Source of the DNA: Pristiophorus japonicus
Lineage: Eukaryota
Direction of reading: 5' to 3'
DNA: 64,000 bases
Assembly: GCF_044704955.1 (NCBI RefSeq)
Contig: NC_091988.1
Location: 84,754,001 to 84,818,000 of the forward strand
Under the pieces are notes generated by a model that was not told where the DNA came from, made no database searches, and saw nothing but the letters and a program-made list of their open reading frames with translations. A program made the position numbers and the translations under genes. Below are positions 456 to 64,000 of the stretch, one piece after another (the first letter of the stretch is position 1; every line of letters starts with the position of its first letter).

Positions 456-3400
456 ATGGGGCAACTAGTGAAGGGTTTGGGTCCTCTGTTGGTGTTGATT
501 GGAGTTGTTTGTTGCTCTGATACTAGGCAGCGGTTTAGAAACTGGGACTTCCCATGGAGCATTGAGAAGGCCACTCGTGTCCCTTCTGGCCCAGATTTTG
601 GTTCTGATTTCAGTAAGTCTGAGGGGCAAAGTGTGTCTCCACTGCAGACTGTGATGGTACAGTGTGGAGAGCAGAACCTGCTGGTCAGTGTGCAGATGGA
701 TTTATTTGGAACCAGGCACTTGATTAAAGCAGCTGATCTGACCCTGGGGTCAACAGGTTGTCGGCCTACTGGGGTCTACTCTCAGAACCACACTTTCCTA
801 TTTCACTATGGGCTCCATGAATGTGACAGCACAATAAAGGTAATGTGATTCTTGATCTAAAACCTTCTGCAAACAATGGGCCACTGGGAGGAGGAACATG
901 GGCATAGACTAGTTGGGCTGAATGGACTGTGTGCTGAACATTCAATGAAATATTTGGACCTGTAACAATATGATTTTAATGTAAGCTTTCATTTTGATTG
1001 GACTTCATGATCAGAATATTTTAGTGAGGTCTGTTTCAATGAGATACTCATGGAGGTTTCTTTCCCTGATTCAATGTTTTATTGATTGAATCTAAACTGG
1101 TCATCTGTACTGAAGTACATGGTGACTAGACTGCCTTGAGCAATGTAACAATGGAGGGTGAGATGAAGGGTTGTGGCAACATGGGTGACTTTTTTTGATG
1201 TACGTTTGGTGGTTTAGTTTTGATTTCTGAGATTGAACTCCAACTTTATCCCAACCGATGTTATATTTCACAATTTGTAGAAAATCATGGGAACTGATTA
1301 CTAAATATTCAAGGGTTCTTTTATGCGAAAATGCTTTGACAGAATGAGGCATTTTTCATCAAATTGAGCTGCCCCTAGAGTAAAGGCAGAACATGCTTAT
1401 GGTGAAATTGTACTGAGGAAACCTAGACTGAAGACAATCCTTTTGAAGGAATTGTCAGGATTGTTTAAATTTGGAATGTTATGTCTTGCATAGTCAGACT
1501 AGATACTGCGAGCTCAAAGTAAGATGTGACCATAGTCCTTTTATTACAGATCAGAGTAGCCTGTGAGACCTCCTTCTTTTTTTTTTAATATATAATGATG
1601 CTCCCATGGCATAGTGGGATACCTTGGGACTCCAGGGGATAAGTCCTCTGGTGGTTTGACATGGTATTTAAAGGTTTACATGCATCACCATAAGTGACCA
1701 TAAAGTACTGAGGCCAATGGAGCAGTTATCCCTAGTGCTGTCTTCCATCCCTAAACCCCTCTGCCTTTCTACCACTCCATCTGTTTATGGTACTTATTCA
1801 AACTTTGCTTAAGTGGCCAAGCCTTTCGTCAAATATCTTGCGTCGATTGGTGCCAAACTTTTTTTTTTAACCTCCCGTGAAGTGCCTTAATGTTTTACGA
1901 TGGCAAGTGAGTTATATAAGTGCTTGATTGAGGTTCCCTTCCCCCAGAGGCTGAAATATCTCTTCAAATGCATTTGGATAGAGCTGGGACTCTAATTAAT
2001 AGAAGTATGAATTGCTGTGTGTTTCTCTAAACACTGCTCTCTTGTACAAGAATGACTCCCTTGTTCTGTACCTGACCCTGACCAGATCACATTTTCTCTC
2101 CCAGATGACGGACGACCTGCTGATTTACACCACCCACCTGTACTACAAGCCGAGCCATATTGGAGGAGTCATTGTGAGAACCAGTGGAGCAGTGGTCCCT
2201 ATTGTGTGCCATTATCCCAGGTAAGGTGGATGATTGACAGGCTCTCCTTTCCTCCAATGGCGGTTGGGGGTGGTGGGGTTTGTGAATTGGAAGTTAAGCT
2301 GGCCGCCTTCCTTCCCAAAGGAAGAGGACAGTGAGCAGCAATGCGATCAAGCCCACCTGGGTCCCCTTCTCCTCCACCAAGGCAGGAGAGGGACGTCTGT
2401 CATTCTCCCTGCGTCTGATGACTGGTAAGTGATCGTCAATTGTCTACCATGCCTGTTTTACCCATTCCTTGGAATCAAGTGAGGAACCCAAAGCTTGTGT
2501 TCCTGTGCTCATTCTCTTTCCCTTTCCAGCTAACTGGAGTGCAGAGCGTACCTCCAATATCTACTACCTGGGTGACCTCATTCACATCGAGGCCTCTGTG
2601 ATGACCGTGAACCACATGCCTCTGAAGCTCTATATTGACCGCTGTATAGCTACACTGAGCCCAGACCAGGACTCCACCCCCAGATACAACATTATTGACT
2701 TCAACGGGTAAGGTCTTTATCTGGGCTGCATAAGTCACACTCCTAACTGTTTGGCGGAGGGAATCCATTCTTAATGATGCAGCTCTTTCTGACCCTCTTT
2801 CCAGTTGCCTGTTGGACAGCCGAGATGAAGACTCCTTTTCTTCCTTCGTGTCACCACGAGATCACCTGGATAAGCTTCAGTTCAAGCTGGATGCATTCCG
2901 CTTCTTTGAAGACGACAGGGACTTGGTAAGAGGAGACCAGATGTTGAGACGGTGAGCGTTTGACATTGAGTAACTCCTGCATGTGTCTCCTGCAGATCTT
3001 CATCACTTGCCATCTGAAAGTAGCTGCAGCAGATCAAAGGCCAGATTCAGTCAACAAAGCTTGTTCCTTCCAGAAGCCAGCCAACCGGTGAGTGAATTCT
3101 AACCAACAATGGTGATCGTCTTTGGTCAGAATGCATCCATATGCCAATCGTGTGCTTCCTTGTTTGTTTAGATGGTCCCTGGTGACTGAATTGGACATGT
3201 CCATGGTGGAAGGATCTAATGAGGTTTGTGCCTGTTGTGATGGGGGCAACTGTGGAGCCTCGAGATTGCGATCTGGAGGAAGACTTCACTCCAGGGACAG
3301 GAGGGAAGTCCTATCTGAGCTGGGTATGTTGTGGTGGTATTGGGTGTTGGGGCTATTGTTCGATGTTTGTTTGTAACTGGATGGAATGAATTGTTGCAGA

Positions 3401-3694
3401 GTCGGAGCCTGTGTGGGAGGGTGAAGTTTCCCTTGGACCACTGATCATTCTGGATGCTGATCTGAAGGACCTGGTCCATTCGATGGGAAGTGAAGCTGTC
3501 GAGACTCGTGAGGAGATTCCGAGTTCTTCTCCAGGTGAGTGTTGATTTTGAGAACCCAATTCCAGTCTAGTGACTCCTGACTCAATGGCTTCTCATTCTC
3601 TGCAGGTGAGGTGCTTCTGGTTGTGACGTTGGCAGTTGGGGCCCTGATCTCAGCCACTCTGGTGGCCGCCTTCCTCTTTAGGAAACACACCTGA
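456..3694 (+). CDS. ZP3: ZP3/ZPC egg-coat glycoprotein, copy G1, intact, 9 exons, 456 aa
   Basis: Exons 456-839, 2105-2220, 2321-2424, 2530-2707, 2805-2925, 2996-3087, 3172-3323, 3400-3534, 3606-3694. All introns are GT-AG; total 1371 nt, open frame. Signal peptide; ZP-N Cys (VQCGE, TGCRP, HECDS, IVCHYPR); PTWVPF; internal hydrophobic patch [11 protein letters not shown] (IDRCIAT, NGCLLD, ITCHL, NKACSF); ZP3-specific CACCDGGNC; furin site RDRR; external hydrophobic patch [11 protein letters not shown] segment plus RKHT tail. Confidence 0.96.
1477..1688 (-). mobile_element. Short solo-LTR-like repeat in ZP3 intron 1 (best preserved in G2, 14719-14922; also in G3, G4, G5 introns)
   Basis: The G2 copy starts TGTTATG and ends CATCACA. 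On the minus strand a TATA-like tract lies upstream of an AATAAA. No clear target-site duplication. Confidence 0.4.
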
Positions 3695-3740
3695 ATCCTT
3701 TCTCATTTGGGCTTTTCTATCATTTGTCAAAAAATGGAGT

Positions 3741-3746
3741 AATAAA
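3741..3746 (+). terminator. Polyadenylation signal of G1 (equivalents at 16970, 26237, 37653, 53708)
   Basis: AATAAA about 47 nt after the stop codon, followed by a GT/T-rich stretch (TCTTTGGTCTTGGTGTTTT). Present in all five 3' ends. Confidence 0.75.
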
Positions 3747-63075: not shown

Positions 63076-63167
63076 CCAATTAGTAAGAATGTTGAATAGT
63101 CTATTGGTTTAGTTTAGCCACACCTGCTCCAATTGTTTTCAGGTGATGGCAAGCTGTGTGTATAAAA
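63076..63167 (+). promoter_or_regulatory. ZP3 G6 proximal promoter
   Basis: Same motif set; TATAAAA 63161-63167. Confidence 0.7.
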
Positions 63168-63219
63168 GGGGATCAGGGGACTCCCCACAGAGAACAGTTG
63201 AGCTGCAGTAGTTTGTATT

Positions 63220-63603
63220 ATGGGGCAACTAGTGAAGGGTTTGGTGCCTCTATTGGTTTTGATCGGAGTGGTTTGTTGCTCTGATACCAGGCAGCAGTTT
63301 AGAAACTTGGACTTCCCATGGAGCATGCAGAAGGCCACTCGTGTCCCTCCAGGCCCAGCTTTTGGTTCTGGTTTCAGTAAGTCTGAGGGGCGAAGTGTGT
63401 CTCCACTGCAGACTGTGATGGTGCAGTGTGGAGAGCAGAACCTGCTGGTCAGTGTACAGATGGATTTATTTGGAACCAGGCACCTGATTAAAGCAGCTGA
63501 TCTGACCCTGGGGTCAACAGGTTGTCGGCCAACTGGGGTCTACTCTCAGAACCACACCGTCCTATTTCATTATGGGCTCCATGAATGTGACAGCACAGTA
63601 AAG
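63220..63603 (+). CDS. ZP3: ZP3 copy G6, exon 1 only (gene continues past the window end)
   Basis: 128-codon exon homologous to exon 1 of the other copies (closest to G4), with AAG|GTAATG donor. Intron 1 runs to position 64000. Confidence 0.9.
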
Positions 63604-64000
63604 GTAATGTGATTCTTGATCTAAAACCTTCTGCAAACAAAGGGCCCCTGGGAGGAGGAACACTGGCATGGACTAGTTGGGCTGAATGGACTGTTTGTGC
63701 TGAACATTCTATGAAATATATGGACCTGTAACAATATGATTTTAATGTAAGCTTTCATTTTGATTGGGCTTTATGTTCAGAATATTTTAGTGAGGCCTGT
63801 TTAAATGAGATACTCATGGAGGTTTCTTTCCCTGATTCAACCTTTTATTGATTGAAAATAAACTGGTCATCTGGACTGAAGTACATGGTTACTAGACTGT
63901 CTTGAGCAATGTAACAGGTGGAGGTTGAGATGAAGGATTGTGGTGACATGGGTGACTTTTTTTTGATGTACATTTGCTGGTTTAGTTTTGATTTGAGATT

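Follow-up and report, generated by a model that had tools for sequence, protein, structure and literature searches.

What does a row of near-identical egg-coat genes in a shark genome represent: a recent burst, an old recombining family or a flaw of the assembly? The question is raised by a stretch of 64,000 nucleotides of the sawshark Pristiophorus japonicus (assembly GCF_044704955.1, contig NC_091988.1, positions 84,754,001 to 84,818,000 of the forward strand; hereafter, the window), for which an initial annotation, made from the sequence alone, had proposed a young, lineage-specific tandem amplification of the gene ZP3 in birth-and-death turnover. The analysis reported here argues, with a probability that we put at roughly 0.7, for a real tandem ZP3 array whose copies exchange sequence and sometimes break; selection likely maintains this array for the quantity of a single conserved egg-coat subunit, of predicted ovarian origin.

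Exon mapping placed six ZP3 copies of nine exons, with canonical GT-AG splice sites, head to tail on the + strand in units of 9-16 kb, and confirmed the state that had been assigned to each of them (G1, G4 and G5 intact, G2 frameshifted, G3 without its head, G6 cut by the end of the window). No ZP match was found on the minus strand of the window, and no flanking gene within its 64 kb. The self-comparison suggested in the initial annotation, carried out with BLAST, returned kilobase-long blocks repeated on the same strand at 85-99.4% identity, far above chance, and 118 of the 127 bins of 500 bp had a long match in another unit. From exon 2 to the 3' flank, the gene bodies are of two types, alpha (G1, G3 and G5, at least 99% alike) and beta (G2 and G4), in the order alpha-beta-alpha-beta-alpha. 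Four annotated P. japonicus ZP3-like proteins (P0049, P0044, P0114 and P0048) match G4, G5, G3 and G1 exactly over the compared spans, so that the source, previously guessed to be a chondrichthyan, is indeed one, the sawshark. The copies are the following.

456..3694, + strand: G1, intact ZP3, 9 exons, 456 aa, alpha body, own 5' type; ZP core identical to P0048.
13700..16923, + strand: G2, frameshifted pseudogene, beta body; lesion in exon 5 (16043-16161).
24601..26190, + strand: G3, decapitated, alpha body; exons 2-9 open, 328 codons, without exon 1 and signal peptide; identical to P0114 (328/328).
23652..23656, + strand: G3 deletion junction, 5-bp microhomology ATGAA, spacer fused to intron 1.
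34454..37604, + strand: G4, intact ZP3, 455 aa, beta body; 455/455 identical to P0049; Pfam ZP-N and ZP-C.
50414..53661, + strand: G5, intact, 456 aa, recombinant, with a G2-like promoter and exon 1 joined in intron 1 to a G1/G3-like body; 432/432 identical to P0044 from residue 25.
63220..64000, + strand: G6, exon 1 (63220-63603) and start of intron 1, G4-like 5' end, truncated by the window.

The frameshift of G2 is a 2-bp deletion, a GT missing from a GTGT run, which leaves an exon 5 of 119 bp instead of the normal 121, while in G3 about 2.93 kb is gone, including the promoter and exon 1; G4 has lost one codon in exon 2 (455 versus 456 aa). Two of the five fully visible copies are therefore broken, and pseudogenes stand beside intact genes, as birth-and-death evolution has it. 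Several public models (P0043, P0048, P0270 and P0044) start with a piece of spacer that is spliced to exon 1 and have no signal peptide, where the window has an intact ATG exon; the sites concerned are window 23510-23650 and its homologues in other spacers. Public gene models of the array often lack the true first exon, which calls for caution among their users.

By their predicted products, the window genes are copies of the ZP3 (ZPC) egg-coat subunit with a single zona pellucida (ZP) module, as initially assigned. Pfam found only ZP-N (PF23344, 70-165) and ZP-C (PF00100, 189-324) in P0049, with no extra ZP-N repeats or trefoil domain. The cysteines of ZP-N (70, 102, 123, 163), of ZP-C (240, 262, 306, 324) and of the ZP3 cluster (351, 353, 354, 359) align to chicken ZP3 (PDB 3NK3), and we take them to be the twelve-cysteine pattern of ZP3, which was checked against the chicken protein. 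The closest solved structures were chicken ZP3 (E 3.6e-99) and fish ZP3 (PDB 8BQU, E 1.1e-68), ZP2 reaching only 6e-4. Both share the ZP-N/ZP-C layout and the cysteine pattern with the lineage of the window genes (lineage A, see below), which differs from them by an insertion before the ZP3 cysteine cluster and by its many, not few, copies. Hydropathy and alignment further indicated a hydrophobic N-terminus (putative signal peptide), an external hydrophobic patch, a furin-type RxRR site (RDRR/RGRR at 372-376) and a hydrophobic segment at 428-453 (putative transmembrane, TM); the protein also has two N-glycosylation sequons. All processing motifs are intact, and each of the two body types, alpha and beta, still includes intact genes in which no cysteine or cleavage site is missing. 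The TM segment reported in the initial annotation is thus retained; ZP proteins made in the liver are not known to have one, and a literature search for liver ZP synthesis in chondrichthyans found nothing.

Then, we compared the copies block by block. The 5' ends form groups (G2 with G5, G4 with G6, G1 alone) which differ from those of the bodies, and the spacers group differently again: type X follows G1 and G4, type Y follows a gap in the assembly, G3 and G5. Spacer identity is 94-100% within a type and about 77-97% (mostly 82-92%) between types, so that the "highly similar" spacers of the first description are so within types but not across them. The comparison of G1, G2, G4 and G5 yielded 84 informative sites (62, 18 and 4 per split), which fell into 9 runs versus 35.2 after shuffling, with none of 10,000 shuffles as low; the changeover from one pattern to the other is located within intron 1, at a point between positions 1374 and 1454 of G1. 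Thus, G5 is a G2-like head on a G1-like body. More generally, the block map of the window shows nearest neighbours changing from block to block: paralogues have exchanged sequence, as in a concertedly evolving tandem array, and the high identity among copies partly reflects this exchange. A high-copy repeat is present in intron 1 (G3 23942-24195 and homologous sites, summed contig depth 30,000-200,000), slightly downstream of the G5 crossover interval.

The divergence among copies indicates that the array is not uniformly young. Alpha and beta are about 4% apart (~8-9 changes per 100 synonymous sites) and X and Y spacers mostly 8-18% apart, whereas the G3 and G5 bodies are 99.4% identical over 5.1 kb (0.6% apart) and the spacers that follow them 98.3% over 6.5 kb. 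Therefore, the array has an old and a young layer and is older than its youngest pairs; "young" is correct for duplicates such as G3/G5, but the alpha/beta and spacer types are older. A path of 0.044 separates alpha from beta in the tree of exons 2-9, compared with 0.27 for the sawshark-Heptranchias pair of lineage A. As the two lines split near 200-250 million years ago, alpha and beta could, very roughly, be some tens of millions of years old, an age that exchange can distort.

Relative to G1, the copies carry 45.5 distinct nonsynonymous changes on 1033 sites and 41.5 synonymous changes on 335 sites, giving a ratio of nonsynonymous to synonymous changes per site (pN/pS) of 0.36 (p 5e-6). By region, pN/pS was 0.50, 0.33, 0.12 and 0.48, the value of 0.12 being that of the linker plus ZP-C, and at the protein ends it was not significantly below 1 (p 0.10 and 0.07). 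It exceeded 1 in two small comparisons of 5-6 changes, G4-G6 (4:1) and the ZP-N of G2-G4 (5:1). The ratio is not raised in G2, which suggests that this copy died recently. Among 12 near copies, variable residues number 10/42 in the N-terminal stretch, 7/42 in the ZP3 subdomain region and 10/164 in ZP-C. The purifying selection favours dosage over gamete-recognition divergence; the latter, named beside dosage in the initial annotation as a possible driver, finds no support, with pN/pS below 1 in every region. The pattern is the one expected of a conserved structural subunit present in many copies, and is not proof of selection on copy number.

Is the amplification a property of the sawshark? 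Three protein searches and three cluster look-ups gave 333 proteins, 287 of which were classified; the sampling comprised the best 120 of 345 matches and 30 clusters of at most 15 members each, with few ray clusters. The numbers of distinct ZP3-like proteins, which are lower bounds and include isoforms and possible haplotigs, were at least 47 in Heptranchias, 35 in P. japonicus, 26 in Mustelus, 23 in Chiloscyllium punctatum, 22 in Stegostoma, 17 in Heterodontus, 13 each in Scyliorhinus torazame and C. plagiosum, 11 in Hemiscyllium, 10 in Scyliorhinus canicula, 3 in Cetorhinus and 1 in Rhincodon, and at least 1-2 in each of eight ray species. All 17 Heterodontus proteins apparently lie on one chromosome-scale contig. 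Judging from these annotated proteins, amplified ZP3 is the rule in sharks, with sets of about 10-45 proteins in most of the species sampled: the expansion was called lineage-specific, but large sets recur in ten shark species, and only the amplified paralogue lineage (A) is specific.

A 110-row tree, for which 6 short rows had been set aside, had 18 changes of species label versus 72.6 after shuffling, with 0 of 200 shuffles as low. Indeed, copies group by species or genus in each lineage and not by orthology, the A/B split alone being trans-species, and the alpha/beta and X/Y types persist within the sawshark array despite this clustering; independent recent expansions would yield the same kind of tree. 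The ZP3 phylogeny suggested in the initial annotation thus returned clustering by species or genus, but not an amplification unique to the sawshark line. Similarly, birth-and-death turnover captures the gene death of G2 and G3 but is an incomplete account, as copies recombine and cluster by species.

Two further groups of records emerged from the protein sampling. A third, apparently low-copy elasmobranch ZP3 type occurs in Heptranchias, Cetorhinus, Stegostoma and Pristis (P0182, P0311, P0313 and P0327). Furthermore, two ZP3 proteins of almost full length that carry the label Salmonella enterica (P0012 and P0097) group with basking-shark lineage-B genes (support 98), and a 90-aa record labelled Aeromonas veronii (P0253) lies within a Mustelus ZP3 cluster; all three are likely shark sequence misfiled.

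To place the window genes among these sets, we computed trees with outgroups, one on 99 rows (202 before thinning, with 14 short ones left out) and one on 38 rows. In the tree of exons 2-9, rays and all sharks form lineage B (100/100), and the window genes belong to lineage A (100/98). Approximately unbiased (AU) tests rejected the placement of A within squalomorph B (p 0.0004) and within shark B (p 0.0001), the groups having been named after earlier trees were seen and the model being plain LG+G4 with long outgroup branches. On this basis, the duplication that gave rise to A and B is most likely older than the divergence of sharks and rays. In lineage A, 7 residues are inserted immediately ahead of the ZP3-specific cysteine cluster. 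Of the sawshark proteins, 19 with 17 distinct cores belong to lineage A and 16 to lineage B; elsewhere, lineage A accounts for 1 of the 47 Heptranchias proteins, none of 137 classified galeomorph proteins and none of 13 ray proteins; 24 further short elasmobranch proteins comprise 1 of A (sawshark), 20 of B and 3 of the third type. Given the 19 sawshark proteins and the short one, the family extends beyond the window. The absence of A outside sawshark and Heptranchias is weak evidence, as the single Heptranchias A gene was itself concealed in a cluster of B proteins, and dogfish, angel shark and other sawshark proteins were not among the matches listed. The lineage-B sets, taken from public annotation (Heptranchias, Heterodontus, Scyliorhinus, Chiloscyllium, Stegostoma and Mustelus), resemble the sawshark array in their many near-identical copies, their single chromosome-scale contig and their clustering by species or genus; they differ in being only 60-67% identical to the window genes and in forming a separate lineage that includes rays.

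The exon 1 tree gave a different picture: four proteins with B bodies, P0084 from Heptranchias and P0005, P0007 and P0050 from Heterodontus, group with A (87/98). Such A-type starts on B bodies point to a putative exchange between the two lineages; an origin of lineage-A exon 1 from lineage B had p 0.37 in the AU test. We also considered intron 1 as a hot spot of exchange across species and dropped it, as the residues that close exon 1 are of B type in the chimeras of both Heptranchias and Heterodontus. In Heptranchias, the A gene and many B genes apparently share a contig, which is consistent with one cluster. The odds seem about even for the following broader history: elasmobranchs would have inherited two ZP3 lineages, of which B was amplified in almost all sharks, while A was lost in galeomorphs and rays, stayed rare in Heptranchias and reached ~20 copies only in the sawshark line (two separate arrays); A and B would have swapped exon-1 sequence, and sharks would possess, at the ZP3 locus, an egg-coat supercluster that has persisted for long and recombines.

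The spacers and the gap in the assembly are located as follows.

3695..13699, + strand: spacer after G1, type X, with decayed pieces resembling long and short interspersed nuclear elements (LINE/SINE-like), mostly 97-99% identical to the spacer after G4.
17707..17851, no strand: gap of 145 N, where three other units have 742-754 bp.
38611..41650, + strand: ~3-kb decayed LINE insertion with an endonuclease domain (Pfam Exo_endo_phos, E 7e-14), only in the spacer after G4.

That the pieces after G1 are repeats comes from the very high depth of public contigs over homologous spacer pieces; we take them to be CR1-like, and the LINE after G4 is presumably CR1 too. No match was found in an Rfam scan, and Tandem Repeats Finder returned short arrays only. 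The left flank of the gap is 91% identical to all units and the right flank 98% identical to the spacers following alpha genes (after G3 and G5); given this change of spacer similarity, additional copies may be concealed in the gap. Window 19210-19398 encodes an exact match to the last 63 residues of P0047, i.e., this protein would come from an alpha-type gene outside the window followed by the same spacer as that right of the gap. Indels usable as unit markers are a 1.3-kb piece present after the gap (18892-20238) and after G5 (about 56200-57540) and absent after G3, a deletion of about 200 bp at 47827, and the 3-kb LINE piece after G4.

As a check for artefacts, we used contigs from four DNA or unlabelled public runs, which may come from the assembled animal itself. 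They cover the genes, and a 617-bp piece had depth 100 versus about 20-47 for type-specific pieces, depths that are not copy numbers. Fixed differences of the contigs were considered as a sign of a separate homogenised type, which we rejected: all 19 differences that were checked, chosen from 40 of the 234, correspond to alleles that window copies already carry, and G2 and G4 have 17 of these in common. Hence, the contigs represent the collapsed majority (beta-like) form, and they cannot show the absence of the alpha type, of the G3 junction or of the G2 frameshift.

It is the least probable of the explanations weighed here that the array is partly an assembly artefact, in which haplotypes were joined one behind the other (G3-G4 versus G5-G6, or on either side of the gap) and the lesions of G2 and G3 arose as consensus errors. 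The closeness of the G3 and G5 units and of their following spacers would fit it, as would the gap with its change of spacer type and the fact that neither lesion appears among the contig rows shown. However, upstream of the shared block the G3 and G5 units differ (Y versus X spacer, exon 1 absent versus present), the 1.3-kb piece follows only G5, G4 and G6 differ at 4 exon 1 residues, most pairs differ by 4-8%, and the G3 junction has clean microhomology; as a hint only, the depth of beta-type alleles in the public contigs is several times that of type-specific pieces. A real array could also vary neutrally by unequal crossing-over among its repeats, with one or few copies that matter and copy number unselected. 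The two broken copies out of five agree with this, and so do the 16 lineage-B proteins of the sawshark and the apparent dispensability of lineage A in other elasmobranchs (once in Heptranchias, none seen in galeomorphs or rays); we nevertheless hold it unlikely, given pN/pS of 0.12 in ZP-C across copies, the retention of intact genes with all cysteines and cleavage sites in both alpha and beta, and the recurrence of large sets in ten shark species. Finally, diversifying selection for sperm recognition or egg-coat properties could drive the expansion, with specialised paralogues, and could be read from the denser variation at the N-terminus and ZP3 subdomain than in ZP-C, from the lineage-A insertion near the cysteine cluster and from the two ratios above 1. 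We regard it as very unlikely, since no region exceeds 1 overall, both exceptions rest on 5-6 changes, and exchange homogenises copies rather than separating them.

Several points weigh against an array kept for the amount of its product. The gap leaves the assembly incomplete at the array, and the G2 frameshift and the G3 junction are not among the contig rows shown. Rays, with at least 1-2 proteins each, are unexpected under a simple rule that a large egg needs many copies, and in teleosts the correlation of copy number with chorion thickness was not significant (rho 0.286, p 0.49; PMC13704971). Dosage is read from conservation alone, purifying selection could predate the amplification, and change counts among copies are not independent owing to exchange.

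In the reading favoured here, misaligned 9-16 kb units would allow unequal crossing-over and gene conversion to create and erase copies, and exchange would shuffle promoter/exon 1, body and spacer blocks. Single copies would die by slippage or microhomology-mediated deletion, at little cost as others remain. Intact copies would yield a TM-anchored precursor with a signal peptide, which would be cut at RxRR and polymerise into the egg coat, and selection would maintain a set of intact genes that supply the furin-released subunit in bulk. The region upstream of the genes is coherent with oocyte expression.

312..455, + strand: G1 proximal promoter-like region, with CCAAT at -144, E-boxes at -99 (CACCTG) and -80 (CAGGTG) and TATAAA at -59 relative to the ATG.

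The same layout of TATAAA at -59, E-boxes at -99/-80 and CCAAT recurs in all five copies that keep their 5' end (G1, G2, G4, G5 and G6). FIGLA and E-boxes are tied to oocyte promoters in a passage of PMC13704971. Such short motifs fit oocyte promoters but prove nothing, and their function is a candidate one. No oestrogen-response element with at most 1 mismatch was found within 5 kb upstream in the four copies examined, which is a weak test.

Tandem ZP3 amplification with pseudogenes is already known in teleosts, and the new part would be the old second lineage amplified in the sawshark. A zebrafish zp3 cluster was reportedly described by Liu in 2006 (cited in PMC10083224). PMC13704971 gives 20-22 tandem, oocyte-expressed ZP3 genes plus pseudogenes in channel and blue catfish, and in its Table 1 the number of ZP3 genes is 12-44 for teleosts and 8 for a turtle; this table has no shark row and the supplement no shark name. 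The teleost sets share with the sawshark array the head-to-tail copies, some pseudogenes and a proposed role of dosage; the sawshark array differs by belonging to a cartilaginous fish, by its 9-16 kb units, by block-wise recombination and by the parallel amplification of two old lineages. Feng et al. 2018 (PMC6262864) describe vertebrate ZP3.1/3.2/3.3 subfamilies with frequent lineage-specific duplication and loss, which is also the behaviour of the sawshark cluster, in a main text where, in the portions concerned, no sharks are named and no shark array is reported. In the relevant passages, the whale shark genome paper (PMC8455134) mentions the ZP domain as a vertebrate novelty only, and PMC8830517 treats duplication of fertilisation proteins in general. 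A published description of shark ZP3 arrays was not found in the literature searched, which leaves out most subscription journals.

Egg-coat gene amplification, so far discussed as a teleost trait, thus recurs in internally fertilising cartilaginous fish. Sharks and rays offer a natural test of dosage versus recognition, as copy number, egg-coat thickness and omega are comparable across species. If the history of two lineages outlined above is true, the dominant subunit type of an egg-coat supercluster would be replaceable in one lineage.

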